From a virus: a stretch of DNA of 32,551 bases. The notes beneath the pieces are model-generated. The model made no database searches and was not told where the DNA came from. It worked only from the letters and a program-made list of their open reading frames with translations. Every line of letters starts with the position of its first letter. The first letter of the stretch is position 1. The stretch spans positions 1 through 32,551 of IMG/VR virus record IMGVR_UViG_3300004941_000002. One strand, given 5' to 3'. Shown here piece after piece: positions 4,014-32,551 of the stretch. The translations under genes and the position numbers were made by a program.

Positions 4014-4360
4014 AAGAGTATCTAAAGCAATTCGGACTAAGGTCTCTTGGTCTTGCGATGGCTACTGCCTTTGGTGGCACGGCTATCGGTGCAGTTGCAG
4101 GTGACTGGCTGATGGGAACCATCATCGGTGTTGGCTCTGCCTTTGCCGTAGTGTTCACGACCCTAGGTGTGTCACTTGCTTGGAAGGGCGGGCTGGCAAT
4201 CAAGGACATCGAGAACGCCTACCGAGCTGCTGTTGCTAAGTCAGACTCCGAGGCGGTTCAGGATGCTCTTGAGGTCAATCAGGACGGCGACTTTGACTGG
4301 GACGACCTACCGAACGATTACGACCCAGACCTCGCAGACGACTCCTCTCCTTCGGCGTAA
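4007..4360 (+). CDS. Holin-like membrane protein (two predicted TM segments, acidic C-terminal tail)
   Basis: Hydrophobic stretches LGLAMATAFGGTAIGAVAG and GTIIGVGSAFAVVFTTLGVSLAW. The start overlaps the endolysin stop, and the C-terminus is Asp-rich. Confidence 0.6.
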   Translation: MLKEYLKQFGLRSLGLAMATAFGGTAIGAVAGDWLMGTIIGVGSAFAVVFTTLGVSLAWKGGLAIKDIENAYRAAVAKSDSEAVQDALEVNQDGDFDWDDLPNDYDPDLADDSSPSA

Positions 4361-4589
4361 GTCCACCCCAAATACCGTCTGTCTGATTCGTCTCCATAGC
4401 GAATGTCAGGCACTCTGTCTGCACAGGACATTGACTGCAAAACTTCTTTGCCACTCTAGCCTCACCTAAGCCACCGCCCGTTTCAGGGAACCATAGCTCG
4501 GGGTCAGTCTCCATACATACAGGATTTTGTCCCGACTTTTTTATTGCCTTCATTAGTTTCAGATAGTTGCGAGCGTCGTGCATACGCAC
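4275..4589 (-). CDS. whiB: WhiB-family Fe-S transcription factor (copy 1)
   Basis: Cys pattern C...CSQCPVQTEC followed by GIWGG and a basic tail (RLRGLGRNR). GTG start at 4589, or ATG at 4583. The 3' end overlaps the convergent gene 4007..4360 by 86 nt. Confidence 0.85.
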   Translation of the reverse strand: MRMHDARNYLKLMKAIKKSGQNPVCMETDPELWFPETGGGLGEARVAKKFCSQCPVQTECLTFAMETNQTDGIWGGLTPKERSRLRGLGRNRSVGRPSQSRRPD

Positions 4590-4619
4590 AATCTAAGGAT
4601 TGCTAATCAGCTTGTCAAA

Positions 4620-4880
4620 TTAGCGTTCGTCGGGTGAGGTTGCTCCCCAGATTCCGTAGCGTTGATTCGTCTCAAGGGCGTATGTAAAACACTCCGTGAC
4701 CATCTGACAGGACTTGCAGATTTTCTTTGCTGCCTTCGTTGCAAGCTGTCGTTTCTCAGGGTCGGGATAGTCCTCAGGGAAGAACAAGTCGGGGACCCTT
4801 TGGCACTCGGGGTCAACTTCGTTCGTCAATTTCAGGAAGGCCAAGTACTTTGAACTTGAAAGATGTCTGTGCCTAGCCAT
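4620..4880 (-). CDS. whiB: WhiB-family Fe-S transcription factor (copy 2)
   Basis: Cys pattern C...CKSCQMVTEC followed by GIWGA, 86 aa. It lies upstream of, and on the same strand as, copy 1, with a 30-nt gap. Confidence 0.85.
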   Translation of the reverse strand: MARHRHLSSSKYLAFLKLTNEVDPECQRVPDLFFPEDYPDPEKRQLATKAAKKICKSCQMVTECFTYALETNQRYGIWGATSPDER

Positions 4881-4909
4881 ACACTAAGGCTAACTAACAA
4901 GGAGGAGAA

Positions 4910-10932: not shown

Positions 10933-11162
10933 TGCTTGAGGGACTAGAGCCTCCAACAAACAAGTCTGTCTATTGCAAGGTAGACCAGATGAAGGACACA
11001 CTCTCTGCCGACGACTACGCAATCTTCATTGCAGCAGTCGACGACAAGGACAGATGGCCTGCCAAAACTCTTACCAATGCCCTAAGGCAACGGGGCGTTT
11101 CGATAGCCGACACGACTCTTTCGAAGCACCGCCAGCGAGCGTGTGCTTGCTACAGAGGTTAG
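10932..11162 (+). CDS. Small putative HTH DNA-binding protein
   Basis: TAATG coupling with the upstream gene. The segment AKTLTNALRQRGVSIADTTLSKHRQ looks like a helix-turn-helix. Confidence 0.45.
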   Translation: MLEGLEPPTNKSVYCKVDQMKDTLSADDYAIFIAAVDDKDRWPAKTLTNALRQRGVSIADTTLSKHRQRACACYRG

Positions 11163-11171
11163 GCTTGAGGG

Positions 11172-12341
11172 ATGCTTGAGGACCTAAACTCACTATCGTC
11201 ACGAGGTAGCGACAGAGTAGCAAAGCCACCTAAGGAAGCTTGGCGACCCCAGCTTGAGCTAGATGCTGACGGTGGCTACTTTGTATCGACACCGAGAAAC
11301 GAAGAAGTCACTAACGCCGAGGACTTGTTAGTTGAGTTCGACCTTGACCCGAAGGACTGGATTGTCGTCTCCGTTCGTCGCTCCAAGTGGGAAGGCGGGC
11401 GTTCAGGTGAATGGCTCAACTCCTACCGAGTCTCACTCAAGCCACGAGGCTTCAAAGGTCAGATGCTTGACCCTACCGAGCTGGAAAAGGAAATCAAGAA
11501 GTGGCGACCACCTCGAGGAGCCAAACCAGCCACAGGTGAGCTCACTGCACTCTACGCAGTAGGCGACACCCAATGGGGTAAGGACGCAGGTGACGGAACC
11601 GAGGGAACCGTTCGTCGTGTTCGCAACGCACTCTCCGAAGCTCTCGCTCGGCAGCAAGAAATAAAAAAGAGGGGGGTAGGCCCGATAGCAATTCCACAAA
11701 TGGGAGACTGCATCGAGGGTGTTGTATCTCAAGGTGGCAAGATAGCGGGAAGGCTAGACCTAGACCTCACCTCACAGATACGAGTAGGACGCAGAGTTCT
11801 CTTAGAGTGGGTCAAGGCGTTCGCTCCCCTAACCAACGAACTCATCATCCCAGTCGTCCCAGGTAACCATGACGAGTCACACCGACAACTCATCACCGAC
11901 CCGATGGACAGCTTTCAGGTAGAGATAGTCGCTCAAGTCCTAGACATCTGTCAGGAGAACCCAGACCTAGCTCATGTCAAAGGACGCTTCCCAGAGCGAG
12001 ACAACTCAACCCTTGCCGTCAACCACTCAGGCACGATGGTCGGTTACGCACACGGACATCAGATGCGAAACCCAGAGAAGTTCCTATCGGGCCACGCCTT
12101 AGGCGACACCGACTTCGGTAGGGCAGAGCTGTATGTCACTGCCCACTATCACCACTACGCTGTCAAGCAGTTCAATCACCGCTTGTGGGTACAGACCCCA
12201 GCACTCGACGGCGGTTCGTTCTGGTTTGCTGACAGAACAGGTATGGGTGGCAGGACACCGACAGGGATTGTCTCGATGGTTGTAGGAGAAGGGTATGACC
12301 CTCGTCGTGACTTGTCCGTGCTAGCGGGAGAGATGCGATGA
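11172..12341 (+). CDS. Calcineurin-like metallophosphoesterase (Mre11/SbcD-type fold), with an N-terminal extension of about 110 aa
   Basis: Ordered motifs AVGDTQWG, MGDCIEG, VPGNHDES, YAHGHQ and TAHYHHY. Confidence 0.7.
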   Translation: MLEDLNSLSSRGSDRVAKPPKEAWRPQLELDADGGYFVSTPRNEEVTNAEDLLVEFDLDPKDWIVVSVRRSKWEGGRSGEWLNSYRVSLKPRGFKGQMLDPTELEKEIKKWRPPRGAKPATGELTALYAVGDTQWGKDAGDGTEGTVRRVRNALSEALARQQEIKKRGVGPIAIPQMGDCIEGVVSQGGKIAGRLDLDLTSQIRVGRRVLLEWVKAFAPLTNELIIPVVPGNHDESHRQLITDPMDSFQVEIVAQVLDICQENPDLAHVKGRFPERDNSTLAVNHSGTMVGYAHGHQMRNPEKFLSGHALGDTDFGRAELYVTAHYHHYAVKQFNHRLWVQTPALDGGSFWFADRTGMGGRTPTGIVSMVVGEGYDPRRDLSVLAGEMR

Positions 12342-13546: not shown

Positions 13547-14698
13547 ATGAAAGTTGAACTTCTAAAAGTTAGCGAGCTAAGACTCGACCCCAATAATGCT
13601 AGAACTCATGATGATAACAACATTGAAGCAATTGCTGGAAGCCTCATGAGATTCGGCCAGCGCAAGCCGATTGTTATTTCGCAGGACAACACGGTAGTAG
13701 CGGGGAATGGCACGCTCACTGCTGCCAAGTCTTTAGGCTGGCAAAAAATTGAGGTAGTTCGTATTCCTGCAGACTGGGATGCCGACAGAATCAAAGCCTT
13801 TGCTCTAGCCGACAATCGCACGGCAGAGCTTGCATCATGGAATCAGCAGGTCATGTCAAGTCAATTGCTAGAGCTACAAGAGGCGGGTTTTGACATTGAA
13901 GAACTTGGATTTAGCCTTGAGCCAGAACCCTTAGATTTAGATTCAATACAAGAAGATGTAGTACCAGAAAATGTTGAAGCTAGAACTCGGCTTGGTGACA
14001 TTTGGAAACTTGGGAATCACCGCTTGCTTTGTGGTGATAGCACAGACCCTACATTGGTCTCAGAAATCATGGAAAATCAAAAAGCTGCGCTAGTTTTTAC
14101 CGACCCTCCTTATGGAGTCGAATACCAGTCAAACATGAGAATAAAATCTCAGAAATTTGATGTGCTAGAAAACGATGATAAGTTTCTCGATTTCGCTCCA
14201 GTAATTACCGCTCATTCAATTGGGTGGGTTTTTATTTGGACAAGTTGGAAAGTGCAAAATGTCTGGATTGACAAGCTGAAAGAATTTGGCTATCCAACTA
14301 ACATCATTGTTTGGCATAAACCAGGAGGCGGAATCGGCGACCTCAAAAAGACCTTTAGCAGTGATTATGAAGTTGCTCTCGTTTGGCACAGGGGCGCACA
14401 GCTCACTGGCAAGCGTATTGGTTCAGTTTGGACTATAAACAAAGATGGTTCAAGCTCTTACTTGCACCCAACTCAAAAACCCATAGCATTAGCGGCAGAG
14501 GCAATTGACAAGACAACCCATAGAGGGGCTCTCGTATTGGACTTGTTTGGCGGGTCAGGCTCAACCCTTATTGCTTGCGAAAAGACCAATCGTTTAGCAA
14601 GGGTTGTGGAGCTTGACCCTAAGTATTGCGATGTTATTGTGCAGCGTTGGGAAAACTTAACAGGTCAGAAAGCAGTATTAGTAAATGCCAGCAGGTAG
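13547..14698 (+). CDS. ParB-like nuclease domain fused to a DNA methyltransferase (DPPY type, N6-adenine or N4-cytosine)
   Basis: ParB-N motifs (DPNNARTH, GQRKPIVIS, VAGNGTLTAA), motif IV TDPPYGV, HPTQKP, and motif I LDLFGGSGST. Two sampled 60-nt lines are about 38 percent GC, against about 58 percent for one sampled backbone line. Confidence 0.85.
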   Translation: MKVELLKVSELRLDPNNARTHDDNNIEAIAGSLMRFGQRKPIVISQDNTVVAGNGTLTAAKSLGWQKIEVVRIPADWDADRIKAFALADNRTAELASWNQQVMSSQLLELQEAGFDIEELGFSLEPEPLDLDSIQEDVVPENVEARTRLGDIWKLGNHRLLCGDSTDPTLVSEIMENQKAALVFTDPPYGVEYQSNMRIKSQKFDVLENDDKFLDFAPVITAHSIGWVFIWTSWKVQNVWIDKLKEFGYPTNIIVWHKPGGGIGDLKKTFSSDYEVALVWHRGAQLTGKRIGSVWTINKDGSSSYLHPTQKPIALAAEAIDKTTHRGALVLDLFGGSGSTLIACEKTNRLARVVELDPKYCDVIVQRWENLTGQKAVLVNASR

Positions 14699-18005: not shown

Positions 18006-18719
18006 ATGTCGATTACCACAAATGTAGTAACAGTTGGCACAGCAGGTGCAACACTTATTGCACCGACTATCGACGCTCAAGATGCTTGGATTGAAAACCT
18101 TGAACCGAGCAATGATTTAGGTAGCTACTCTCGTGACGGCTACTCTTACGCAGCCAAAAGTTATTTCCCTATCGCCAACAACGGCACAGCGATTTTCTCC
18201 TTTACTACAGGCACAACTGGAGCGCAAATAGATAGCTGGGATTTTGACTCCAGAAATTCATCGGTTATTGGAGAACTTATTGAGGGTGCGACTATCACGA
18301 CTAGCGGAACTGCTATCCCAGGGTATAACCTGAATCGCAACGAGAGCGATGCCCACGATGCCTCTTTGGTAACCGCTTCAGCCCTAACTGGTGGAACTGT
18401 TGTTTATTCGACTTTTATTGGAGCTTCTAATCAGTCAACTGGCGGTGCATACTCAAATGTCATAATTACACTCGAGCCAAGCACTCAGTATGGATTCCGC
18501 TTTAGAGATGTTGGTGGCAACGGAACAAATGTTCACGCCGTAATTGGTTGGGTTGAGAAATACAATGGATTGAACGATGTCTACCTAAACGGAGCTACAG
18601 GCGCATCCGTAAGGCTAAGAGGTGGCGAGAAGATTCAACTAGAGCTACAGCAAGGAGAGGGAATCACGGCCTTTGCATCTCGTGAAGGTGTCCAAGTCGC
18701 CGTGATGAGACAGGACTAA
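18006..18719 (+). CDS. Beta-rich protein of unknown function inserted between portal and prohead protease
   Basis: 237-aa ORF, Gly/Thr/Ser/Asn-rich, with no recognised motif. Its start lies 1 nt after the portal stop, and its stop overlaps the protease ATG (TAATG). Confidence 0.7.
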   Translation: MSITTNVVTVGTAGATLIAPTIDAQDAWIENLEPSNDLGSYSRDGYSYAAKSYFPIANNGTAIFSFTTGTTGAQIDSWDFDSRNSSVIGELIEGATITTSGTAIPGYNLNRNESDAHDASLVTASALTGGTVVYSTFIGASNQSTGGAYSNVIITLEPSTQYGFRFRDVGGNGTNVHAVIGWVEKYNGLNDVYLNGATGASVRLRGGEKIQLELQQGEGITAFASREGVQVAVMRQD

Positions 18720-20263
18720 TGCCGTATTTCATTTGGGACGAACATCCAGACTGTGACAACTGGGCGGTAGTCAAAGAAGATGGTGAGCTTGTAGCTTGCC
18801 ATGACACTAAAGATTCAGCCGTTGACCAGATGGTCGCAATTTCAATAGCAGAGGAGATGGAACCAGGTGGCACTTATACCAGAGAAGGGCGGGCTGCTCC
18901 CGACGAACTCTCAGTCGGGGACTTCGTCCGCTGGAACAGCTCAGGGGGAACCGCAAGGGGTCGCATTGAAAGAATCGAGCGTGACGGCGAAATCAATGTC
19001 CCAGACTCAAGCTTCACAATCACAGGGACCGCTGACGACCCAGCAGCCCTCATCTCCGTCTGGCAAGAAGGCGAAGAAGGCTGGCAAGAGTCAGACACCC
19101 TAGTCGGACACAAGTTTTCAACACTAACTAAAATTGACAGCCTACGGTCACTGACAATAGAGACAAGAGAAGTCAACCTAACCCCACCTGCCTACATGAG
19201 AGCTGCTGCTCGAAGGGGACTCGAGTATTACGAGGAAGGACTCGGCGGAGATGGCTTGGTTGAAAGAACTATACGAGAAGCTCGGGCTATGGCTAGGGGT
19301 TCTGTTACTGCTGAGAAGTGGGTTAGGATTCGGGCTTGGATTGCTCGCCATCTGGTTGATTTGGACTCTCCCTCCGCACGACCTAGTTCGGACGATTATC
19401 CTAGTGCTGGTGTAGTCGCCCATCTACTATGGGGTTCAGGGCCATCGAAGGCTGCTGCTCGCCGTGCATTGGCGTATGCCGAAGGCGTTGTGAGTAGAAT
19501 AGAAGCAGAGAATGAAGGACGAGCGAAAGGCGAAGCATTGTCCAAAATTGAAACTCGTGTTCTCACGACTGACTTTGAGGTGCGAGAAGAAGCAGACGGT
19601 ATGCACCTTACTGGCTACGCTGCCAGATTCAATGAGCCGTCCGAGCCACTACCGTTTATTGAGCGGATTGCACCAGGGGCTTTCAAGCGTTCGCTAAAGT
19701 CACGCAACGACATAAAGCTTCTATGGAACCACGACAGCTCAACCGTCTTAGGTTCAACTCGTGCGGGAACTCTAACCCTCACAGAGGACAATCAAGGTCT
19801 ACGGGTCAACGCAGTCTTGCCAGACACTCAGGCAGGCCGTGACGCAAAAGTCCTAATTCAGCGTGGGGATGTTACAGGATTCTCCTTCGGCTTTACCGTG
19901 CCTAAGGGTGGGGACACATGGAACGAGGACGGGACCGAAAGAACCCTAAACTCAATTCGCCTAATGGAGGTCAGCACGGGAGTCGCCTTCCCTGCGTACC
20001 CGACAACTAATGGCACTGCACAAGTTCGTGGCCTAGACAAGCTTGCTAAGAGGGCAGAGGTCGACGCAGACGCTCTGGCTGATGCAATGATGAAACTTGA
20101 GGAGGGCGAAGAAATTACCGCTGAGGAAAAGGACATCCTTAGTAGAGTTATCTCAGAGCTAGCACCGAAGCAGGAGGAAGCTCCAACCGAGGAGCCAAAG
20201 GGCGACCTCGCTATGTTGCAACTCAAGAAGAAGAAGCTAGAACTACTCCTGAAGGGACTATAA
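18719..20263 (+). CDS. HK97-type prohead serine protease (S78) with an N-terminal extension of about 270 aa and a coiled-coil C-terminus
   Basis: The C-terminal half carries GYAARFNE...GAFKRSL...LLWNHD...GFSFGF...MEVSTGVAFPAYPTT. The N-terminal half has no protease motif. Confidence 0.8.
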   Translation: MPYFIWDEHPDCDNWAVVKEDGELVACHDTKDSAVDQMVAISIAEEMEPGGTYTREGRAAPDELSVGDFVRWNSSGGTARGRIERIERDGEINVPDSSFTITGTADDPAALISVWQEGEEGWQESDTLVGHKFSTLTKIDSLRSLTIETREVNLTPPAYMRAAARRGLEYYEEGLGGDGLVERTIREARAMARGSVTAEKWVRIRAWIARHLVDLDSPSARPSSDDYPSAGVVAHLLWGSGPSKAAARRALAYAEGVVSRIEAENEGRAKGEALSKIETRVLTTDFEVREEADGMHLTGYAARFNEPSEPLPFIERIAPGAFKRSLKSRNDIKLLWNHDSSTVLGSTRAGTLTLTEDNQGLRVNAVLPDTQAGRDAKVLIQRGDVTGFSFGFTVPKGGDTWNEDGTERTLNSIRLMEVSTGVAFPAYPTTNGTAQVRGLDKLAKRAEVDADALADAMMKLEEGEEITAEEKDILSRVISELAPKQEEAPTEEPKGDLAMLQLKKKKLELLLKGL

Positions 20264-21072: not shown

Positions 21073-22239
21073 ATGTCTGAGTTCATCAAGACTCAGTACG
21101 AAGTCCGCAACAACCTCATCATGCAGGTTCGTGAGGTCATTGACCTTGCCGAAACTGAAGGTCGTGGTTTGGACTCCGCTGAGCTAGAAAAGATTGACAG
21201 GATTGAGGCTGACATCCGCAAGGCGGACGAGGCTATTTCTGTCGCAGAGCGTAATGAGGAGCGTCGCCTAGAGGCTTCCGTCGCTGCAAAGGGCTTCGTG
21301 CCAACCGTATCCGAGGACCGTTCGGCTGCTGACATCCTTCGTGCAATCGCACAGGGTGAGCAGAGGGACCACACCTTCGAGCGTCGTGCAGCTCTTACTC
21401 CATCCACCAACACCGTTCCAAAGTCGTTCTACGACCAGGTATTCGATGTTGCTCGTCTGACTTTCCCGCTGGACGAGTTCGAGGTTATCAACACCACTTC
21501 TGGTGAGGACCTAACCATCCCAACCTTGACCGCATACTCCGCTGCATCTCTAGTAGCTGCTGCTGGAACCGTATCGGCCTCAGAGCCTACCTACGCAAGC
21601 ATCACCCTAGGTGCTTACAAGTACGGTATGCTCGCACAGGCTGCTTCCGAGCTAGTAAGCGACGCAGGTTTCGACCTAGCATCGCACCTTGCAAACCAGG
21701 CTGGTAACGGCATTGGTTACGCAGTAGGTTCGGCTGTAACCCTTGGCGACGGCTCAAGCAAGCCTCAGGGTGTTGTAGCTGCTGCTGGTTCTGGTGTCAC
21801 TGGTGGCACTGGTGTCTCAGGTGGCTTCACCGCTGACAACCTCATTGACCTCGCCTACAGCGTCGATGGACAGGTTCGCAGAATGAGTCCAGCGTTCATG
21901 GCTAACGGTGCAACCATCGGTGCTATGCGTAAGCTCAAGGACGGCGCAGGAAACTACCTCTACCAGATTGGTCAGTTCGGACCTGCTGGTGGCGACACCT
22001 TCGCAGGCTACCGTGTCGTGGAGAACCCACACATGGCTGACATTGCAACTTCCGCAAAGTCGGTTGTTTTTGGCGACCTTAAGTCTCACAAGGTCAGGAT
22101 TGCAGGCGGTTTGTCTGTGGCCTCATCTACAGACTATGCCTTCAACACTGACTTGGTTACATGGAGATTCCTCATCAGAATTGACTCTGATTTGACCCAT
22201 GCAGCCCATGTCAAATACTTCGCAGGTGCAGCTAGCTAG
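21073..22239 (+). CDS. Major capsid protein (HK97 fold) with a coiled-coil N-terminal delta-like domain
   Basis: 388 aa. The helical N-terminus (about 100 aa), the GDGSSKPQGVV motif, strong AAGGAGA Shine-Dalgarno sequence and flanking terminators all fit a major capsid gene. Confidence 0.9.
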   Translation: MSEFIKTQYEVRNNLIMQVREVIDLAETEGRGLDSAELEKIDRIEADIRKADEAISVAERNEERRLEASVAAKGFVPTVSEDRSAADILRAIAQGEQRDHTFERRAALTPSTNTVPKSFYDQVFDVARLTFPLDEFEVINTTSGEDLTIPTLTAYSAASLVAAAGTVSASEPTYASITLGAYKYGMLAQAASELVSDAGFDLASHLANQAGNGIGYAVGSAVTLGDGSSKPQGVVAAAGSGVTGGTGVSGGFTADNLIDLAYSVDGQVRRMSPAFMANGATIGAMRKLKDGAGNYLYQIGQFGPAGGDTFAGYRVVENPHMADIATSAKSVVFGDLKSHKVRIAGGLSVASSTDYAFNTDLVTWRFLIRIDSDLTHAAHVKYFAGAAS

Positions 22240-22260: not shown

Positions 22261-22303
22261 GAAACCCCTCGAGCTTGTAGGTTGGCTCGGGGGGTTTCTT
22301 TAT
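22261..22303 (+). terminator. Intrinsic terminator after the capsid gene
   Basis: 14-nt arms GAAACCCCTCGAGC / GCTCGGGGGGTTTC pair with one mismatch (13 bp), separated by a 10-nt loop and followed by TTTAT. Confidence 0.8.
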
Positions 22304-22397
22304 GCTACGCTTTTCAAGCGGACATCAGCACTTCTCAGTGCGGTCCGTAGTTATGGCCCTCCCTAGTGGTTGCGTTCATTTCTTTCCCTTGTTGAGG

Positions 22398-22430
22398 AAC
22401 CCCTGCTGGAAACGGCAGGGGTTTCTTGTT
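22398..22430 (+). terminator. Second intrinsic terminator about 100 nt downstream of the first
   Basis: Stem AACCCCTGC / GCAGGGGTT, loop TGGAAACG, followed by TCTTGTT. Confidence 0.7.
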
Positions 22431-22441
22431 AGGCTGTCACT

Positions 22442-23632
22442 ATGCCAACCTACGAAAAGCTCAACGGAGCAGTCTCACTTGCAAGCAACACCCCAGGTGT
22501 CCCAACGGGCTACGGGGTGCAGGGCATGATGTTAGCCGAACGCATGAAGCGTCACGGACTAGATGTTGCCTCACTATCGAACTATGGGCTTGAGGGCAGA
22601 ATGGATACCCTCAAAACCAAGCACGGTTCTATCCCTCACTACCCTCGAGGAATCACGACCTACTCGGGCGATGTCATAAAGCTCTACCACGAAGATTTCT
22701 TAGCGGGCAGGGAAGTGCCTAACTTTGTTCTCACCCTCTACGACGCTTGGGTGTATCTGCAATACCCCGAACTCGAAACGATGGACATTGTCTCGTGGGT
22801 TCCCATTGACCACCTAAGCATCCCTCCAAAGGTCGAGCTATGGTGCAAGAAGGAAAATGTAACCCCAATAGCCATGAGCGAATTTGGTCTCAAGCAGTTG
22901 CAGTCAAAAGACATCGACGCTCGCTACATACCTCACGCCGTCGACACCTCGGTCTATAAGCCAACACCAAAAATCGACGGTATCCCAATGCGTGAATACT
23001 ACGGACTAAAGGAAGATGACTTCCTAGTCGGCATGGTGTCAGCCAACAAAGCCAACGGTCAGATTCACCGCAAGGCTTACGCCGAAGCTCTGCTTGCCTT
23101 TTCGCTATTCAAGAAGAACCACCCCAACGCTTACCTATACATTCACGCTGAGCCAGGGAAGCACTACGGCGGGTTCAACCTCGTCACGCTGATACAAGCA
23201 GTCGGGCTAGACAAAGAGGATGTTCTATTCCCAGACCCTCACAAGCACCGCATGGGATTCTCTGACAAGGAGATGGCAGCTCTCTATACGGGCATGGATG
23301 TTTTGTTGCACGCCTCCTACGGAGAAGGATTCGGAGTGCCGTCAATCGAAGCTCAGGCTTGTGGAACACCAGTCATTGCTTCTAGCTGGACAGCATCGCT
23401 TGAACTTGCAGGGCCAGATTCTCTGCTTGTGCAAGGTCAGCCGTTCTGGGACGAGGCACAGCTTTCATGGTGGCAAGTGCCGTCTATCCCGTCAATCACA
23501 GCAGCCCTTGAGAAGGCTTACGATAAGCGTGGGCAGGAGTTCCCTGCAACCATAGAGTTCGCTAAGTCTTACGATGTTGAGGCCGTTTGGAACGCATACT
23601 GGCTACCCTTCCTCAAAGAGAGGCTAAAGTGA
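22442..23632 (+). CDS. GT4-family (GT-B fold) glycosyltransferase
   Basis: The C-terminal signature DVLLHASYGEGFGVPSIEAQACGTPVIAS is E-x7-E type. 396 aa. No Shine-Dalgarno sequence; TAGGCT lies 6 nt upstream of the ATG. Confidence 0.8.
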   Translation: MPTYEKLNGAVSLASNTPGVPTGYGVQGMMLAERMKRHGLDVASLSNYGLEGRMDTLKTKHGSIPHYPRGITTYSGDVIKLYHEDFLAGREVPNFVLTLYDAWVYLQYPELETMDIVSWVPIDHLSIPPKVELWCKKENVTPIAMSEFGLKQLQSKDIDARYIPHAVDTSVYKPTPKIDGIPMREYYGLKEDDFLVGMVSANKANGQIHRKAYAEALLAFSLFKKNHPNAYLYIHAEPGKHYGGFNLVTLIQAVGLDKEDVLFPDPHKHRMGFSDKEMAALYTGMDVLLHASYGEGFGVPSIEAQACGTPVIASSWTASLELAGPDSLLVQGQPFWDEAQLSWWQVPSIPSITAALEKAYDKRGQEFPATIEFAKSYDVEAVWNAYWLPFLKERLK

Positions 23633-24276
23633 TTCCCGTCCTAGGGTTTGCCACTCTGTCGAAGTTTGACATGGCCCAACGCCTACTAGATTCAATCGAC
23701 TACCCAGTTGAGCATTTGGTAATTATCGACAACTCTGGGAAACGTGAGTTTCAGCCAGTAGTCCCCGAGCTAGTGCAGAACACTTGGTTGCTACAAGTTC
23801 CAAACGGACTAGGTGCGAATGGTGCTTGGAATCTGATTATCAAATCAACCCCGCACGCTCCGTATTGGGTTCTACCAAATGACGACTCTTGGTTTGCCGA
23901 GGGAAGTCTTGAGTCCATTGCTAAGGATGTAGACACCGAGGCGTTCAACTTCGTTGACATTCATCCTCGCTGGTCTTGCGTGATTCCCACTGAGGGCAGT
24001 GTCCGCAAGGCAGGGCTATGGGATGAGGCGTTTCACCCCATCTATTTCGACGACGACGATTACGAGTGGCGTATGCGTGAGCTGGGGGTTCGCTTTCACG
24101 ACATCCCTGCAAAGGTGCATCACGACAACTCCTCGACGCTCAAGTCGGGCTACCAAGACAAGAACACCTTTACCTTCCGTCGCAATCAAAGTCTGCTAGT
24201 CAACAAGAGGGCAGCAAAGAATCTAGGCATACACGGCTGGTCTCTCGACATAAGGAGAATGAACTCTTGGGAATGA
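23629..24276 (+). CDS. GT2-like (GT-A fold) glycosyltransferase
   Basis: GTG at 23629 overlaps the upstream TGA (GTGA). The N-terminus VIPVLGFATLSKFDMAQRLLDSIDYPVEHLVIIDNSG and the later NDDS are typical of the GT-A layout. Confidence 0.6.
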   Translation: MIPVLGFATLSKFDMAQRLLDSIDYPVEHLVIIDNSGKREFQPVVPELVQNTWLLQVPNGLGANGAWNLIIKSTPHAPYWVLPNDDSWFAEGSLESIAKDVDTEAFNFVDIHPRWSCVIPTEGSVRKAGLWDEAFHPIYFDDDDYEWRMRELGVRFHDIPAKVHHDNSSTLKSGYQDKNTFTFRRNQSLLVNKRAAKNLGIHGWSLDIRRMNSWE

Positions 24277-24689
24277 CGGTTTACACGGGCGGAACCTTCG
24301 ACCTCTTTCACAGGGGTCACGCTAACTTCTTGAAACGTTGCAAGGAGATAGGAGAAGTCACCGTTGCCCTAAACACCGATGAGTTCATCTGGGAGTATAA
24401 GAACAAGATGCCCATAATGACCTACACCGAGCGTGAAGAAGTCCTCATAGCTTGCAGGTATGTCGACAGGGTTATCCCTAACTTCGGCGGGGCCAACTCA
24501 AAGCCAAGCATTGAGCTAGTGCAACCCGACATCATCATCATTGGGTCAGATTGGGCTAGGCGTGACTACTATGCTCAAATGCAATTCGACCAAGATTGGT
24601 TGGACGAGAGACAGATTGCACTCTGCTACATCCCCTATACAGACGGGATTAGCTCTACTAAGGTCAAGGGTCGATTAGCGGTAGACTAG
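24273..24689 (+). CDS. tagD: Glycerol-3-phosphate cytidylyltransferase-like nucleotidyltransferase (TagD-like)
   Basis: GGTFDLFHRGH (HxGH), NTDEF, CRYVDRVIP, IGSDW and PYTDGISSTKVK are collinear with TagD motifs. The ATG at 24273 overlaps the upstream TGA. Confidence 0.8.
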   Translation: MTVYTGGTFDLFHRGHANFLKRCKEIGEVTVALNTDEFIWEYKNKMPIMTYTEREEVLIACRYVDRVIPNFGGANSKPSIELVQPDIIIIGSDWARRDYYAQMQFDQDWLDERQIALCYIPYTDGISSTKVKGRLAVD

Positions 24690-24705: not shown

Positions 24706-25305
24706 GTGGCAATTACCAATGGCTATTGCACTCTCAACGAGCTAAAAGCATCACTCAGGATTCCCGTGTCTGACACGGTTGACGACGACTTGCTTGAGCT
24801 TGCTGTCGAGTCTGCAAGCCGAGACATCGACCAAGCTTGCGAGCGTCAGTTCTTTTCTACGGCGACTACTCGCATCTACACCCCTCGTGACTCTTTCAAC
24901 TGTGAGATTGACGACCTAATTTCTGTCACCTCAATCAAGGCATCTTCGGCAGCAGACGGTGTGTTCGATGTCACTTGGACCTCAAGCGATTACCAGCTAA
25001 TGCCACTCAACGGATTGGCAGGCGGTATGGAGATGCCTTACGACCTCATCTACGCCGTTGGGGATTACACCTTCCCTATCTCGGGTAACGAGGCAACGGT
25101 ACAGGTCAACGGAACCTTCGGCTTTTCATCAGTGCCTACTGCAATCAAGCAGGCAACCGTCCTACTCTCGGCAAGAATTTTCAAGCGCAACGACTCCCCA
25201 GGTGGAGTGATGGGCTTTGGAGACCTCGGAGTAATTCGTGTGGGACGCATGGACCCAGACATCGACAGGCTCATTCAGCCATACAAGAAGGTCCGCTTCG
25301 CATGA
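24706..25305 (+). CDS. Head-tail connector/adaptor protein (gp6-like N-terminus)
   Basis: GTG start after GGAGG. YCTLNELKASLRIPVSDTVDDDLLELAVESASRDIDQACERQF is the typical gp6-like opening. Confidence 0.7.
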   Translation: MAITNGYCTLNELKASLRIPVSDTVDDDLLELAVESASRDIDQACERQFFSTATTRIYTPRDSFNCEIDDLISVTSIKASSAADGVFDVTWTSSDYQLMPLNGLAGGMEMPYDLIYAVGDYTFPISGNEATVQVNGTFGFSSVPTAIKQATVLLSARIFKRNDSPGGVMGFGDLGVIRVGRMDPDIDRLIQPYKKVRFA

Positions 25306-27202: not shown

Positions 27203-30114
27203 TGAGTATTAAGATTCGCATTGTCTCCGACTTTGATAAGAAGGGACTAACAGAGGCAGAGAAGGCCCTCGGTAGCCTCTCTAAAGCAGCGGGTGTTGCA
27301 CTTGCAGCTGTTGGTGCAGCAGTCGCAGGTATCGCTGTCAAGTCGGTTCAAGAGTTCGCTAAGTTTGACGGTGCTCTTACCAAGTCTCAAGCCATCATGG
27401 GTGACCTCACCAAGACGATGGAAGAGGACATGGCTAAGGCTGCCCGTGAGGTAGCCAAGCAAACTACATTCTCAGCCGAACAAGCTGCCGAGTCGTTCTT
27501 CTTCCTAGCGTCCGCAGGTTTGGATGCTGAAGCCTCTATCGCTGCCCTGCCTCGAGTAGCCCAGTTCGCTCAGGCGGGTATGTTCGACATGAGCCGAGCT
27601 ACCGACCTCTTGACAGACGCTCAATCCGCTCTTGGCCTCACCATCCGTGACGATGCTGTCGCAAACATGGAGAACATGATAAAGGTGTCGGATGTCCTCG
27701 TCCGTGCGAACACCTTGTCAAACGCCACAGTCGAGCAGTTCTCTACCTCGCTGACCACTAAGGCTGGTCCTGCTCTTAGAACTCTAGGTAAGGACATGGA
27801 AGAAGGTGTCGCTGTATTGGCAGCGTTCGCCGACCAGGGTATCAAGGGCGAGGAAGCTGGAACCCAGCTCTCCATCGTTCTGCGTGACCTCTCGACTAAG
27901 GCCATCAAAAACAAAGAGGACTTCGCACAATTCGGTGTCTCGGTATTTGACGCTAACGGCGAGATGCGTAACCTCGGCGACATCATTGCCAACCTTGAAA
28001 CTGCTCTTGCGGGAATGTCCGACGAGACGGCAAAGGCTACCCTTCTTCAGCTTGGATTCGCAGACCGCTCGGTCCAGTCAATCCTTGCCCTCTTGGGAAC
28101 CTCAGATGCAATCAAGGGCTACGAAGAAGCACTCCGTTCCTCAAGTGGCTTCACAGACCAAGTAGCAAACAAGCAACTTGACACTTTCAACTCACAGCTA
28201 CGCCTACTTGAGTCAGCCTTTATAGATGTAGGTATTCAGATTGGTGAGGAGCTTACTCCTTACTTGCAAGACCTTATTCCAGTCATACAAGACCTGCTAC
28301 CGATTGTCGGTGAGAAGCTTGCAGATGCCTTCAAGAAGGTTGACTGGGAAGGCTTGATTGAGGCAGTCGGCGAGTTCATCGCTCTAATTGTCGACAACCT
28401 TGACAACATCGGCAGGTTAGTCGGAGTCATTGCTGGCATCTCAGGAGCACTTGTCACCTACACGGTTGTAACAAAGATTGCCACAACCGCTCAAAAGATT
28501 TTCAACTCAACGCTACTGCTCAATCCTTGGGGACTAGCAGCTGTCGCACTAGCAGGATTCACCTACCTCCTAATCAGGAACAATGGCGAAGTAGACAAGG
28601 CAACAGAGAACTATCGACAGCTCAACTCGCAGATTGACCAGAGTAATTACACTCAGAAGAATCTCGCCGACACCTACCGTGAGTCTGCTTATGTAGCTGG
28701 CAAGTATGGAGTTGAGACTGACGACCTGAGAAATGCAAACCTCAAGCTCGCAGGTGCAGCAGGCATGGTTTCGGGCGAGATAAATCGCTTCAATCAAATA
28801 AAGCTAGATAGCCTACGCAACGAACTCAATGCAACAAAGACTACCGCTGAGCAACTAAACGATACAGCTAGGGAGTATGGACTAGCTCGTCTTGGCCTAT
28901 TGAAGGGCACGCCGTCAGGTGCAGGACTCGAGGTGCAAGCATCTCTCATTACTACCCCGAGTGGGCCGTCTGTATTTGAACAGACTCGTGACAGAGTTCG
29001 AAGCCTTATCAAGGATTCTCAAAAGCAACTTGCTAACGCACAGAAGCAATACAACAAGACCGTCCAAGACGCTAACGAAAACTACGCCTCATCGGTTGAA
29101 CGACTGCAACTCGAGTATGCAAACCGACTCGAAGGCATAATCAGGCAATCTCAGCAAAGACTGACCGACGCATACAAGTCTGCTGTTGCGGTCAACATCT
29201 CATCGCTATTTGAGCGTGACGAGAACAAGTCCGTAGAGGGCCTAGTCAAGTCCCTAAGCGACAAACTCACGGCCTCTCGTAATCTCCTATCAAACTCCGC
29301 AGAACTCGCCTCAGCGGGCTTCTCACAGACCTTCATTGAGCAGGTCGTTTCGGCTGGAACCGAGACGGGTAACGAGCTTGCCTCGGCAATCTTGAACTCC
29401 ACACCAGATGTGCAGCGTGAACTGCAAACCCTATTCGGTGCTTTGGAGATTGAGTCTGAGCAGGGAATGGATGCTCTTGCTGAAAGCATCTATGAACGGC
29501 AAGGACTTGCAACTCAAGCACTTGTAGCTCTTTACGCTCAAACTCAAGCCGAGCAAGCCAACGCAATGATTGACTTGCAAACCCAGCTCGATGAGACTCT
29601 AACTAACGCTGCCACTACCTTGCAAGACAGCATAAAGTCAATCAAGGATAATGTCCTCGAGCAGATTGCAGAAATGGACTCTGGTCTTGGCGGACTTGGT
29701 AAGACCGTCGACATGTTTATCGGCAAGCTAGACAAGCTCATTACAAAGTATGGTGAAGCTAAAGAGGCTATGGAGGTTCCTGACATACCCGCTCCTGCAC
29801 CTGCTCCTGCACCTGCACCTGCACCGTCACCTGCCCCGTCACCTGCACCTACTCCTAAGAAGATTCCAGAGCCAGACATCAAGTTCCTGCCACAACAAGA
29901 CATCATTCCAAAGTTCAAGCCTTTGACTAATGCCGAAATCGAAGCCATCAAAAGGGATTCGTTTGACCCAGGTAGCCGAACAATTATCAACCTCAATGTC
30001 AAGACTGACGCAACACAATCGCCGTCAATGGTTGGTTCATCAATCGCTAACGCCATTAGTAAATACACAACAAAGGGCGGAGGAATTAGCGGGTTCAAGG
30101 TGATTGCGGTCTAA
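27202..30114 (+). CDS. Tape measure protein
   Basis: 970 aa, the largest ORF in the window. It is helical and Ala/Leu/Gln-rich with internal hydrophobic segments, and lies between the chaperone and distal tail genes. Confidence 0.9.
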   Translation: MSIKIRIVSDFDKKGLTEAEKALGSLSKAAGVALAAVGAAVAGIAVKSVQEFAKFDGALTKSQAIMGDLTKTMEEDMAKAAREVAKQTTFSAEQAAESFFFLASAGLDAEASIAALPRVAQFAQAGMFDMSRATDLLTDAQSALGLTIRDDAVANMENMIKVSDVLVRANTLSNATVEQFSTSLTTKAGPALRTLGKDMEEGVAVLAAFADQGIKGEEAGTQLSIVLRDLSTKAIKNKEDFAQFGVSVFDANGEMRNLGDIIANLETALAGMSDETAKATLLQLGFADRSVQSILALLGTSDAIKGYEEALRSSSGFTDQVANKQLDTFNSQLRLLESAFIDVGIQIGEELTPYLQDLIPVIQDLLPIVGEKLADAFKKVDWEGLIEAVGEFIALIVDNLDNIGRLVGVIAGISGALVTYTVVTKIATTAQKIFNSTLLLNPWGLAAVALAGFTYLLIRNNGEVDKATENYRQLNSQIDQSNYTQKNLADTYRESAYVAGKYGVETDDLRNANLKLAGAAGMVSGEINRFNQIKLDSLRNELNATKTTAEQLNDTAREYGLARLGLLKGTPSGAGLEVQASLITTPSGPSVFEQTRDRVRSLIKDSQKQLANAQKQYNKTVQDANENYASSVERLQLEYANRLEGIIRQSQQRLTDAYKSAVAVNISSLFERDENKSVEGLVKSLSDKLTASRNLLSNSAELASAGFSQTFIEQVVSAGTETGNELASAILNSTPDVQRELQTLFGALEIESEQGMDALAESIYERQGLATQALVALYAQTQAEQANAMIDLQTQLDETLTNAATTLQDSIKSIKDNVLEQIAEMDSGLGGLGKTVDMFIGKLDKLITKYGEAKEAMEVPDIPAPAPAPAPAPAPSPAPSPAPTPKKIPEPDIKFLPQQDIIPKFKPLTNAEIEAIKRDSFDPGSRTIINLNVKTDATQSPSMVGSSIANAISKYTTKGGGISGFKVIAV
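29788..29856 (+). repeat. Pro-Ala/Pro-Ser dipeptide repeat tract within the tape measure (PAPAPAPAPAPAPSPAPSPAPTP)
   Basis: 23 consecutive codons of CCN-GCN/TCN/ACN, read directly from the sequence. Confidence 0.9.
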
Positions 30115-32116: not shown

Positions 32117-32551
32117 ATGGGCGTTGTAAAGCTCTCTACCGCTGGGATACTTGACTATCAGAAGTATTCGTCAATGCTTGCGGGTAACACTGCGTTTAGT
32201 CCTAGCTCATACGACCTGCTTGAAACAGAGATACTGACAGGCACGACAGCAAGCGTGACCTTCAGCTCGCTAGGGTCTTATGCTGCTGATTATCGGCACT
32301 TGCAGATTAGATGGGTCGCTGGTAATACCAACGCAGCTACAAACATTGATAATGTCAAACTAAATTTCAACGGAGACACGGGAGCAAACTACTCTTCTCA
32401 CAGACTACTGGGTTCTGGGTCTAGCGTAAATTCTTACGCCGCTTCTAATGCAAGTTATTGTTTTGGTGGCATTGTTGCTAGAGGTTCATCGGTAATTCCT
32501 GCTGCAAACATAGTGGACATTTTAGATTGGCAAGACACTAATAAATACCCA
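32117..32551 (+). CDS. 5' part of junction-spanning A-type paralogue (A1); continues into 92..262
   Basis: ATG at 32117 preceded by TAGGAGGG. The frame is open to the window end and is therefore absent from the ORF track. It translates as MGVVKLSTAGILDYQKYSSMLAGNTAFSPSS...ASVTFSSLGSYAADYRHLQIRW...NFNGDTGANY. Confidence 0.85.
   Translation, partial: MGVVKLSTAGILDYQKYSSMLAGNTAFSPSSYDLLETEILTGTTASVTFSSLGSYAADYRHLQIRWVAGNTNAATNIDNVKLNFNGDTGANYSSHRLLGSGSSVNSYAASNASYCFGGIVARGSSVIPAANIVDILDWQDTNKYP

Follow-up and report, generated by a model that had tools for sequence, protein, structure and literature searches.

A glycosyltransferase-nucleotidyltransferase cassette as one allele of a variable island between the capsid and adaptor genes of aquatic phages

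The cassette described here, in which the genes of two glycosyltransferase-like enzymes (a GT4 enzyme and a GT-A-fold enzyme) are followed by a nucleotidyltransferase gene (NT), is an allele of a glycan-synthesis island that is widespread and variable, and whose place, between the genes of the major capsid protein and the head-tail adaptor, is fixed. It is found in a large lineage of aquatic siphoviruses that are uncultured, related to the Pontimonas phage phiPsal1 and probably actinophages. Judging from the genes and their surroundings, we put at about one half the probability that the cassette serves late-expressed cytoplasmic glycosylation of virion proteins, which would give the particle a variable glycan. 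Virion decoration had been suggested in an earlier note on this DNA, and by context it is the best-supported target.

The window (the whole stretch of 32,551 nucleotides that was analysed, IMG/VR record IMGVR_UViG_3300004941_000002) holds a complete genome of 32.46 kb, with a 91-bp terminal repeat, of an uncultured phage. The major capsid gene, the GT4 gene, the GT-A-fold gene, NT and the adaptor gene follow one another on the + strand (Table 1). As the earlier note had stated, three coupled genes lie between capsid and connector: GT4 and GT-A overlap by GTGA at 23629-23632, and GT-A and NT by ATGA at 24273-24276. No terminator was found in the 16 nt between NT and the adaptor gene, which has its own GGAGG Shine-Dalgarno sequence. 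Membrane segments are absent from the GT4, GT-A and NT products, which are soluble cytoplasmic enzymes.

Table 1. Features of the island and its borders in the window
Feature	Position	Strand	Details
HK97-type major capsid protein gene	21073..22239	+	Pfam Phage_capsid 163 bits; phrog_10; left island border
Hairpin 1, post-capsid intrinsic terminator	22261..22298	+	15 bp stem, T-tail TTTCTTTAT
Hairpin 2	22394..22427	+	15 bp stem, weak T-tract TTTCTTGTT
Extended -10-like element TGT-TAGGCT	22427..22435	+	six bases 5' of ATG, leaderless-type start
GT4-family glycosyltransferase (GT-B, EX7E)	22442..23632	+	396 aa; PF00534, phrog_2170
Type-A GT-A-fold glycosyltransferase-like protein	23629..24276	+	215 aa; phrog_29879, AlphaFold and Foldseek
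HxGH/ISST nucleotidyltransferase (NT)	24273..24689	+	138 aa; PF01467
Head-tail adaptor gene (gp6-like)	24706..25305	+	Pfam Phage_connect_1; phrog_442; right island border

A variable island between capsid and adaptor

In 79 relatives chosen solely by their capsid or adaptor genes, 25 have an empty slot and 22 have GT4-GT2-NT in it, and the others carry different combinations built around GT4; GT4, present in 52 of the 79 loci, is a near-universal core gene of the island. The order capsid-GT4-GT2-NT-adaptor is colinear in 72 of 144 loci (L001-L144), down to about 40% capsid identity, and the remainder, loci selected by NT or GT2, mostly show shortened versions or variants of the same order. We rejected a reading of the cassette as a recent moron, given this colinearity across deep divergence and a GC and GC3 content equal to that of the neighbouring genes. 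The accessory genes of the island encode a second GT4, GT17 and GT2-like enzymes, an NAD epimerase/dehydratase (156 bits), an RmlD-like reductase, FkbM and class-I methyltransferases and radical-SAM/SPASM proteins; all are glycan-tailoring enzymes.

NT and its partner are mutually dependent, with 0 exceptions in 126 intervals. The 80 intervals with NT contain either a type-A GT-A enzyme (67 intervals, 52-88% identity) or, in other alleles, the 170-aa protein U170 together with a type-B GT-A enzyme (13 intervals), and none of the 46 intervals that lack NT has a type-A GT-A or U170. The two types of GT-A enzyme differ at the nucleotide-binding motifs. U170 gave no relationship to the GT-A enzyme or to PHROGs.

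A megablast search with the region as query returned no match among 50,697 phage records, and relatives were found at the protein level. The closest cultured one is phiPsal1 (genes 10-12, MG835450), which has the same gene order, a GT4 enzyme (gp10) 52% identical to that of the window and a GT-A homolog (35%, type B) in the same capsid/neck slot, but which lacks NT and carries an opposite-strand SAM methyltransferase in its place. We found no analysis of the phiPsal1 cassette in the literature. A scan of genome contigs yielded mostly short MAG contigs, probably mis-binned phage, and about 7 loci that are clearly cellular or prophage. The same glycan theme recurs within the head/neck modules of unrelated phages: like cassettes sit in the MCP/adaptor interval of Mae-JY09 and in the portal/protease interval of S-CBS4, and an Acidobacteriota prophage has the order GT-GT2-NT-x-SU10 adaptor.

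The earlier note knew of no phage that pairs glycosyltransferases with an activated glycerol-phosphate supply. Pairings of glycosyltransferase and nucleotidyltransferase genes are already in deposited genomes, and the cassette is not a one-off. About 60 Streptomyces phages (Stanwilliamsviridae) have a GT-GT-NT triad in which NT, 52-55% identical to that of the window, overlaps the stop of the preceding GT gene; the triad lies amid DNA-metabolism genes (dNMP kinase, DnaQ, ThyX) in genomes of 130 kb. The Streptomyces glycosyltransferases (Kenrey gp79 and gp80) were considered as GT-A homologs and are not homologous, so that the triads have only NT in common. Tetrasphaera phage TJE1 also combines donor supply with a glycosyltransferase, in an NT-kinase-epimerase-MTase-GT cluster at a pre-terminase position in a 49-kb genome. 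The functions of the Streptomyces triad and of the TJE1 cluster are putative, as are those of the present cassette.

Terminators and the start of the GT4 gene

Two terminators had been proposed to insulate the cassette upstream. Both hairpins are borne out: hairpin 1 (dG -29.7, z -5.5) has a canonical T-tail and is listed by the terminator scan, and hairpin 2 (dG -27.5, z -4.8) has a weaker tail and is absent from that list. In an alignment of the intergenic regions, from which row L146 was left out for wrong coordinates, both hairpins recur in L004, L007 and L109, preserved by compensatory changes such as one from C-G to T-A in hairpin 2 of L007. The intergenic region of the relatives has a median of 74 nt and one hairpin; in most, this single hairpin is the equivalent of hairpin 2, directly 5' of the -10 element. 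In the long intergenic region Rfam gave no match above the gathering score, and a RybB match (25 bits versus 40) was discarded as a hairpin artefact. The idea of an insulated cassette, however, has to be modified: among empty-slot relatives, terminator and leaderless promoter precede the adaptor gene in 13 of 20, and the arrangement is a feature of the phage backbone, not specific to the cassette.

At the GT4 start no Shine-Dalgarno sequence was found, and TAGGCT-N6-ATG lies at 22430-22444, both as reported before. This exact motif has 2 copies in the window where 0.27 would be expected; a count of two was reached in 2 of 100 shuffled sequences. Its likeness to the start of the second whiB copy holds for the layout and not for the literal hexamer, since the other exact copy lies at 11160, before the gene of an SbcD-like exonuclease. 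Both whiB genes are on the minus strand and have TAGCCT-N6-ATG and TTGACA-N17-TAGATT-N6-ATG upstream; the element common to the GT4 and whiB starts is the general TANNNT-N6-ATG architecture.

Of 90 distinct relatives, 76 have TANNNT in precisely the same place before the GT4 ATG (-12..-7), mostly in the form TGnTANNNT, and a Shine-Dalgarno-like sequence precedes GT4 in only 15. With TANNNT 6-7 nt 5' of the ATG, no Shine-Dalgarno sequence and conservation of both traits in relatives, a leaderless promoter of actinobacterial type at the predicted GT4 start is well supported. The leaderless transcript proposed in the earlier note is thus upheld, but not from a promoter of the cassette's own: it is the backbone promoter of the neck/tail operon, of which the cassette is the first cistron. 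The island lies directly 3' of the post-capsid terminator and the leaderless-type promoter, and the late neck/tail transcript therefore begins with it. Late co-transcription is likewise suggested by the conserved terminator and TGnTANNNT-N6-ATG, the gene overlaps and the terminator-free adaptor junction. A terminator and, after it, a leaderless promoter separate capsid from neck/tail expression at this locus, in an arrangement that is well conserved.

The three enzymes and the activated donor

The families named in the earlier note (GT4, a GT2-like enzyme, here with GT-A fold, and a TagD-like nucleotidyltransferase) are borne out, and the motifs that it quoted, EGFGVPSIEAQACGTPVI in GT4 and GTFDLFHRGH and ISSTKVK in NT, are all present. 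GT4 matches phrog_2170 and, with 43.5 bits (cutoff 26.4), Glycos_transf_1 (PF00534); its quoted string includes the EX7E motif, readable in the translation as E-GFGVPSI-E, and score and motif together place it in the retaining GT4 family.

The GT-A enzyme has no Pfam hit and stays below the gathering score of PF00535, a family for which precomputed matches exist on a few homologs (73-85% identical). It matches phrog_29879 at 3.5e-31. A Foldseek search of PDB with its AlphaFold model (pLDDT 78.8) returned GT-A glycosyltransferases with probability 1.0 and TM 0.58-0.63, including AvpGT, WrtF, GlfT2, HAS, K4CP and SunS (TMq 0.54-0.63), and the conserved acidic motifs D34-N35, N84-D85-D86 and D140-D143 are of the DxD type of GT-A enzymes. 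Its real start is GTG 23629 and not TTG 23587, because homologs have 215-216 aa, the phiPsal1 alignment begins there and a GAGAGG Shine-Dalgarno sequence precedes it.

NT matches CTP_transf_like (PF01467) with 60.2 bits (cutoff 21), and the top 50 PDB matches of its AlphaFold model (pLDDT 85) all fall within the cytidylyltransferase-like superfamily. TagD converts CTP and sn-glycerol-3-phosphate to CDP-glycerol and PPi, and the earlier note had ascribed this reaction to the present gene. The TagD identity of NT is not established. The best NCBIfam match of NT is the TagD equivalog TIGR01518, where it reaches 80.2 bits against a cutoff of 165.4, followed by rfaE domain II (66.6 versus 181.5). 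Fom1, a hydroxyethylphosphonate cytidylyltransferase, is equally close: NT is 36% identical to TagD (TM 0.79/0.85) and 35% identical to Fom1 (TM 0.80/0.86, E 1e-10), whose cytidylyltransferase domain (PDB 5X3D) is the top fold match, compared with only 27-28% for HldC. By profile, too, Fom1 is as close as TagD, which leads only marginally as single-domain match (87.0 against 85.8 bits).

With TagD/TarD (PDB 1COZ, 2B7L) NT has in common the fold, the HxGH motif (here HRGH), the NTDEF segment and an ISST-type C-terminal motif; K43 aligns with TagD K44 and R54 with TagD R55, and neither residue varies within the family. NT of the window also has K45, for the second lysine of the TagD pair K44/K46, where the Streptomyces phage homologs have Asn. 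NT differs from TagD in a 10-residue insertion, RRDYYAQMQF, and in a Tyr for R113. It reads YTDGISST, in contrast to the LPRTEGISTT of TagD, with its RTEGISTT signature and R113; the Tyr is invariant in the aquatic NT family (A3), as in IPYTPGISST of Fom1, and the motif IPYTxGISST is common to NT and Fom1. Unlike TagD, NT is never linked to TagF/TagB and always lies beside GT2/GT4 enzymes and methyltransferases. No TagF/TagB (PF04464) or LicD-type transferase was found in the complete genome, among the accessory genes of the island or beside cellular homologs. In contrast to Fom1-type enzymes, NT stands alone, and neither PEP mutase nor other phosphonate enzymes were found in the genome or in the accessory genes of relatives examined. 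CpgD, a CTP:phosphoglycerate cytidylyltransferase considered as a substrate analogue, does not share the fold of NT (COG1213 instead) and has no bearing here. NT is closest to cytidylyltransferases for small substrates; it is probably one itself, CTP-dependent and acting on a small phospho- or phosphono-alcohol.

The most parsimonious substrate is sn-glycerol-3-phosphate, because it is a universal metabolite. Alternatively, NT may activate another compound, and the glycan would carry that group. Candidates are 2-hydroxyethyl- or 2-aminoethyl-phosphonate (as for Fom1 and PhpF-type PF01467 enzymes), phosphoglycerate or a phospho-sugar, and such a donor would fit any of the targets discussed below. 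We regard this second option as tentative, though a contender. The Fom1 match, gap-free over the family-specific segment, and the common IPYTxGISST motif argue for it, as do the wide margin by which NT misses the TagD equivalog cutoff and the lack of any linked CDP-glycerol-using transferase; moreover, 23.6% of PEP mutases have a fused PF01467 domain, and such domains serve cell-surface phosphonate tailoring (PMC6697681). Without phosphonate genes in the genome or accessory genes, on the other hand, the substrate must be host-derived, and a supply that needs only one enzyme is easiest to understand if the substrate is a universal metabolite, for example sn-glycerol-3-phosphate. The invariant TagD-type lysine K43 and R54 and the marginally best TagD profile point the same way.

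No GT4 or GT-A enzyme is known to use CDP-glycerol. Together with the absence of TagF/TagB/LicD, the missed TagD cutoff and the missing R113, this counts against the virion reading. It is conceivable, if unlikely, that type-A GT-A and U170 are transferases with a CDP-activated non-sugar donor, which would put phosphodiester-linked glycerol-phosphate or phosphonate on a virion glycan. If true, this would be the first virus particle with a teichoic-acid-like anionic decoration, a new donor class for the GT-A fold and, in U170, a new transferase family.

Candidate targets of the glycan

If virion proteins are the target, GT4 would attach the first sugar directly to one of them (capsid and/or tail tube) in the cytoplasm, and the GT-A enzyme would then extend or decorate this glycan. 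From CTP and a small phospho-compound of the host, NT would make a CDP/CMP-activated donor, to be consumed by the strictly co-occurring type-A GT-A or, in other alleles, by U170. Particles would end up coated with a glycan that varies between strains, an analogue of the glycan shield on the mycobacteriophages Che8, Corndog and Myrna.

In mycobacteriophages it was shown experimentally that phage glycosyltransferases glycosylate the virion (Freeman 2023, as reported in PMC12363180 and PMC11256854). According to the accounts in PMC12363180, PMC11256854 and PMC4351075, the enzymes are expressed in infection and absent from the virion, and capsid and tail-tube proteins are glycosylated; in Corndog the genes are described within the head-morphogenesis operon, in the portal/protease interval (PMC4351075). 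As far as these sources describe it, that system likewise comprises soluble actinophage-encoded glycosyltransferases, often with a methyltransferase, in a structural operon. The present cassette would be analogous to it and not homologous. A tblastn search with the GT-A enzyme, GT4 and a GT17-like accessory protein against the 50,697 phage records recovered no mycobacteriophage, and Che8 gp110 and Corndog gp38, the essential glycosyltransferases of that system, have no detectable sequence homology to the cassette enzymes, which speaks against the virion reading. The present cassette further differs in its capsid/adaptor insertion site, in the added cytidylyltransferase with its obligate partner and in the aquatic hosts of its phage, which is uncultured. 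Also against virion glycosylation, no feature of the capsid and tail-tube C-termini, compared between empty-slot and cassette-bearing relatives, tracks the presence of the cassette.

If virion glycosylation is indeed the function, it would be common and fast-diversifying in abundant aquatic phages and not peculiar to a few mycobacteriophages, and it would be encoded at a predictable hot spot by the capsid gene, organised like a bacterial O-antigen locus. This would bear on the interactions of virions with hosts, grazers, particles and antibodies, and would offer leads for enzyme discovery, as the co-occurrence of NT with type-A GT-A or U170 points to the user of the activated donor. It would also bear on the reading of auxiliary metabolic genes in viromes, such as phage tagD, now filed under host cell-wall metabolism.

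That filing, made for cyanophages and lake viromes, reflects another possible target, the host envelope. The enzymes might act on wall glycopolymers or lipid-linked precursors, for example with NT boosting CDP-glycerol for teichoic-acid-type polymers and the glycosyltransferases adding or altering side chains, so as to block superinfection, prevent re-adsorption of progeny to lysing cells or ease release. NT is TagD-like, teichoic acids are usual in Microbacteriaceae (PMC6106888), and cell-wall modification has been proposed as one role of phage glycosyltransferases in the literature on aquatic actinophages (PMC10202952); the island-like variability would also agree with an arms race in which a surface receptor of the host is at stake. 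Yet we consider this improbable. The products are soluble, and neither lipid-carrier, flippase, polymerase or priming phosphoglycosyltransferase genes nor TagF/TagB were found in the complete genome, which is of lytic type, no integrase having been detected by PHROGs and Pfam. The genes are late and co-transcribed with those of neck and tail, and for a host-directed moron there would be no reason to find equivalent cassettes within the head modules of several unrelated lineages.

A third target would be phage DNA, with the glycosyltransferases modifying bases, NT supplying the donor and the genome being shielded from host nucleases. Protection of DNA has been suggested in the literature on related phages, and the homologous NT and GT sets beside replication genes, in the Streptomyces phages and in one relative (L053) where they follow primase and nuclease, favour it over the virion. 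It is nevertheless very improbable: the same scan of the complete genome revealed no thymidylate-synthase-like base hydroxymethylase, TET/JBP or other base-activating enzyme, only a ParB-DNA methyltransferase; the Streptomyces glycosyltransferases are unrelated to those of the cassette; the position of the genes and their late co-transcription with those of the neck are at odds with it; and the accessory enzymes of relatives (NDP-sugar epimerase/dehydratase, RmlD-like reductase, O-methyltransferases, GT17) are typical of protein and polysaccharide glycans.

A variable island between the capsid and adaptor genes

Judging from gene content, the junction between the capsid and head-tail adaptor genes behaves like a small O-antigen-type locus, because a core glycosyltransferase (GT) of the GT4 family is combined there with interchangeable enzymes for donor tailoring and transfer. 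The window has no close DNA relative among 50,697 deposited phage genomes; its GT4 shares 52% identity with gp10 of Pontimonas phage phiPsal1, in which the order is capsid, GT4, a methyltransferase on the opposite strand, GT2 and neck. A scan of IMG/VR with the nucleotidyltransferase (NT) and the GT2-like middle protein (GT-A) as queries yielded 140 loci, and the window proteins were mapped on 144 loci (the 140 together with phiPsal1 and two Streptomyces phages), 72 of which possess the complete colinear series capsid-GT4-GT2-NT-adaptor, with capsid identity down to ~40%. To counter selection bias, loci were also fetched by the capsid or adaptor protein alone, and 79 of them contain both genes. 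Nothing lies between the two in 25 of these (~100 bp), GT4-GT2-NT in 22, GT4 alone in five and GT-A alone in two, the remainder having GT4 with other genes; GT4 (52/79) is the conserved core enzyme of the island.

Apart from occasional HNH endonucleases, the accessory genes of relatives are predicted glycan-tailoring enzymes: a second GT4, a GT17-like enzyme, another GT2-like protein, an RmlD-like reductase, FkbM-type and class-I methyltransferases, an MptE/DUF115-like protein, a radical-SAM/SPASM enzyme, and an NAD-dependent sugar epimerase/dehydratase (Pfam, 156 bits) that occupies the exact position of NT. In some alleles of the island the radical-SAM/SPASM enzyme (313 aa) lies between the GT-A gene and NT; its presence is unusual for a glycan locus of a phage, and a radical tailoring step such as C-methylation or epimerisation is suggested. 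The HNH genes lie at differing points of the island, and their insertion fits a recombination or insertion hot spot at the junction.

In the window, the three open reading frames of the earlier note exist and their assigned families stand. GT4 scores above the Pfam Glycos_transf_1 threshold, with its EX7E motif inside the string quoted in that note, and NT, which carries HRGH and ISST motifs, belongs to the PF01467 nucleotidyltransferases. The GT-A protein has no Pfam match and matches phrog_29879; its AlphaFold model (pLDDT 78.8, pTM 0.80) matches GT-A-fold sugar-nucleotide glycosyltransferases with probability 1.0 (AvpGT, WrtF, GlfT2, hyaluronan synthase, chondroitin polymerase, SunS), and gave no match to phosphotransferases of the TagF or LicD type. 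The gene is better started at the GTG at 23629, because homologs have 215-216 aa, the phiPsal1 alignment begins there and a GAGAGG Shine-Dalgarno sequence lies upstream. The genes overlap by GTGA (GT4/GT-A) and ATGA (GT-A/NT), the usual sign of translational coupling, and their GC and GC3 equal those of their neighbours, which points to an old resident rather than a recent acquisition.

Table. Positions of features in the window and in compared loci
Feature	Position	Strand
Terminal direct repeat	window 1-91 and 32461-32551	
Two tandem WhiB-like genes	window 4278-4592 and 4623-4883	-
RecE-like gene	window 4910	+
Second exact TAGGCT-N6-ATG	window 11160-11174	
SbcD-like exonuclease gene	window 11172-12341	
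ParB-methyltransferase fusion	window 13547-14698	
Prohead protease	window 18719-20263	
HK97-type capsid gene, left neighbour of the island	window 21073-22239	+
Inter-hairpin spacer	window 22300-22393	
TAGGCT-N6-ATG of GT4	window 22430-22444	
GT4	window 22442-23632	
GT-A	window 23629-24276	
NT	window 24273-24689	
gp6-like adaptor gene, right neighbour of the island	window 24706-25305	+
Tape-measure dipeptide repeat	window ~29840-29920	
HNH endonucleases in the island	L019:1261-1779; L144:304-843	
HNH endonuclease in the island	L186:1715-2218	-
Radical-SAM/SPASM enzyme (L060, L061, L065, L066, L075, L076)	e.g. L076:5054-5995	
U170 (L022, L035, L043, L047, L050, L053, L059-L062, L065, L067, L069, L072, L076-L078)	e.g. 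L062:6417-6923	
GT-GT-NT triad, Stanwilliamsviridae (Kenrey)	L002:4729-6453	
Acidobacteriota prophage-like stretch (OY969418.1)	L295:6704-9850	

Partners and substrate of the nucleotidyltransferase

The association of NT with its partners was counted over 126 distinct capsid-to-adaptor intervals. All 80 intervals with NT contain either a window-like (type-A) GT-A, 52-88% identical to the window protein (67 intervals), or a protein of ~170 aa, here called U170, together with a phiPsal1-like (type-B) GT-A that is 31-38% identical to the window GT-A (13 intervals); neither type A nor U170 is present in any of the 46 intervals that lack NT. The distribution of GT-A identities is cleanly bimodal, and types A and B differ in their nucleotide-binding elements: DNSG versus DNG, NDD versus (S/A)ND, and FDDDDYEWR versus FEDNDFxRR. 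The sample is partly biased, as some loci were fetched with an NT or type-A query, but the lack of exceptions in either direction is still informative. The simplest reading of this gene association is that type-A GT-A and U170 would be alternative consumers of the NT product. U170 (MIVIGTTPxRExWL...) occurs only where NT is present and type-A GT-A is absent, has no detectable relative and no Pfam or PHROG match, and is a candidate new transferase family. In one 66-kb viral contig (L053), NT-U170 and several GT2 enzymes lie beside replication genes, a non-structural context.

The identification of NT as TagD held only in part: the TagD equivalog is the best NCBIfam match, but its 80.2 bits are far under the cutoff of 165.4, Fom1 is as close, and a TagF/TagB or LicD neighbour is missing. 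The heptose adenylyltransferase domain gives 66.6 bits (cutoff 181.5). The AlphaFold model of NT (pLDDT 85.4) is as near to the cytidylyltransferase domain of Fom1 (35% identity, TM 0.80/0.86), the substrate of which is 2-hydroxyethylphosphonate, as to TagD (36%, TM 0.79/0.85); identities are 27-28% with HldC and 23-26% with CCT and ECT. An NT-family profile scores TagD, TarD and Fom1 at 87.0, 85.5 and 85.8 bits. Fom1 aligns with NT without gaps across the conserved segment RRDYYAQMQFDQDW, which is missing from TagD, and both have IPYTxGISST where TagD has LPRTEGISTT. Automatic database names conflict as well ("glycerol-3-phosphate cytidylyltransferase" at JGI, "FAD synthase" at NCBI). The nearest cellular and prophage homologs again neighbour GT4, GT2 and methyltransferases, and no TagF/TagB, LicD, heptose-pathway or PEP-mutase genes were found beside them; cell-surface phosphonate tailoring often involves PF01467 enzymes (PMC6697681). 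We conclude from alignments and model that NT is a predicted cytidylyltransferase whose substrate is a small phospho- or phosphono-alcohol. Among such substrates glycerol-3-phosphate is a tentative choice, at somewhat less than even odds, favoured mainly by parsimony, since supply by a single enzyme calls for a precursor that is universal. If confirmed, such chemistry, with a CDP-activated non-sugar group placed on a phage glycan, would be notable.

Hairpins and predicted promoter upstream of the island

Two intrinsic terminators had been proposed upstream of GT4. Both hairpins fold strongly (z -5.5 for the first and -4.8 for the second, against shuffled controls) and are kept, with compensatory substitutions, in the closest relatives, but a canonical T-tail follows only the first. 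Capsid-GT4 intergenic regions of ~200 nt with two hairpins are found in the window and its closest relatives (L004, L007, L109 and L248); elsewhere the median is 74 nt, with one hairpin. The spacer of ~95 nt between the window hairpins is poorly conserved and has neither a significant fold (z -0.07) nor an Rfam match.

The TAGGCT-N6-ATG described for the cassette start is present, and the layout TANNNT-N6-ATG is indeed common to GT4 and whiB; the second exact copy of the hexamer, however, heads the SbcD-like exonuclease gene, and the whiB genes (both on the minus strand) have leaderless-type starts, with TAGCCT-N6-ATG in one case and a textbook TTGACA-N17-TAGATT-N6-ATG in the other. TANNNT stands at -12 in 5 of 48 plus-strand gene starts of the window (~0.75 expected), and several leaderless operon starts are suggested for this phage. 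Among 90 distinct capsid-GT4 intergenic regions, 76 have TANNNT exactly at -12 to -7 of the GT4 ATG (~1.4 by chance), mostly with TGn and a G+C-rich, T-tract-bearing hairpin ahead of it, whereas a Shine-Dalgarno-like sequence occurs in only 15 of the regions. Because the inner bases and the spacer vary, conservation applies to T, A and T and to their spacing. Of 20 distinct relatives with an empty slot, 13 have a terminator and TAGAAT-N6-ATG ahead of the adaptor gene, which makes the predicted promoter a feature of the backbone, one that would separate capsid expression from that of neck and tail. The island has its insertion site right after this unit, and in the window the displaced adaptor gene, no longer first, has a GGAGG Shine-Dalgarno sequence. 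Since the island lies behind the backbone promoter and no terminator was found between NT and adaptor, late expression of the cassette, on one transcript with the neck and tail genes, is predicted.

Virion glycosylation and the presence of glycosyltransferases within structural operons of actinophages are already known, annotations of cyanophages, roseophages and lake viromes list phage "tagD" genes among auxiliary metabolic genes, and an NT adjoining a GT has precedents in Streptomyces phages and TJE1. In the literature consulted we found no earlier description of the capsid-adaptor junction as a modular glycan island of wide occurrence, of such an island placed right after a conserved unit of terminator and leaderless promoter, or of an exception-free coupling of NT to type-A GT-A or U170.

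Possible targets of the cassette

Gene context and analogy point to virion glycosylation as the role of the cassette, with a probability of about 0.5. Genes of this type sit in head and neck modules of several unrelated lineages: between capsid and adaptor in Microcystis phage Mae-JY09; between portal and protease in Synechococcus phage S-CBS4 (GT, GT-A homolog, methyltransferase) and in Corndog (PMC4351075); and, in an Acidobacteriota prophage-like stretch, as GT1-like, GT2, NT homolog (45% identity) and unknown ORF before an SU10-type adaptor, the same kind of cassette beside the adaptor although phage lineage and host phylum are unrelated. The predicted late co-transcription with neck and tail genes argues for the same target, as does the variability of the island, which is reminiscent of diversifying selection acting on a surface that is exposed. 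There is also experimental precedent, as capsid and tail-tube proteins of Che8, Corndog and Myrna are glycosylated by the phages' own GTs (Freeman 2023, as cited in PMC12363180 and PMC11256854). Against a virion target count the lack of homology between the cassette enzymes and those of mycobacteriophages, the lack of an acceptor signature in the capsid and tail-tube sequences, and ~60 Streptomyces phages with homologous NT and GT sets amid DNA-metabolism genes. In these Stanwilliamsviridae (among them Kenrey, and Jay2Jay, L003) the GT-GT-NT triad is conserved; its NT is 52-55% identical to that of the window, and its GTs are unrelated to the window GTs.

For GTs of aquatic actinophages, DNA protection or cell-wall modification has been suggested (PMC10202952). 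Remodelling of the host envelope by the cassette is unlikely: the enzymes are soluble, and the complete genome has no lipid-carrier, flippase or polymerase genes, hence no machinery for making or exporting a lipid-linked polymer, which again favours the virion. DNA modification, to which the Streptomyces gene sets would lend themselves, is very improbable because the complete genome has no partner enzymes for hypermodification (no recognisable base-hydroxymethylase or TET-like enzyme), a further point for virion glycosylation; the remaining probability is assigned to none of these three targets.

The window, with its exact terminal repeat of 91 bp, forms a circle of ~32,460 bp (GC 50%) and is a complete, circularly closed phage genome, in which no integrase was found. 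The order is tail-distal unknowns, M23-type endolysin, two whiB genes (minus strand), RecE-like exonuclease, replication initiator, NrdH-like redoxin, SbcD-like exonuclease, HNH endonuclease, ParB-DNA methyltransferase fusion, small and large terminase, portal, S78 protease, HK97-type capsid, the three cassette genes, gp6-like adaptor, tail terminator, tail tube and tape measure. The tandem WhiB-like genes are divergent from the RecE-like gene. The fusion protein (phrog_498, 1.4e-97) joins a ParB-like nuclease domain at its N-terminus to the methyltransferase, and its gene directly precedes that of the small terminase. The prohead protease (514 aa) has an N-terminal Hva1_TUDOR-like domain (residues 67-113), a conserved phrog_2859 segment before the S78 domain (286-442), and a Lys/Glu-rich C-terminus that may be a scaffold. 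The tape-measure protein carries a Pro-Ala/Pro-Ser dipeptide repeat, PAPAPAPAPAPAPSPAPSPAPTP, near its C-terminus (residues ~880-905).
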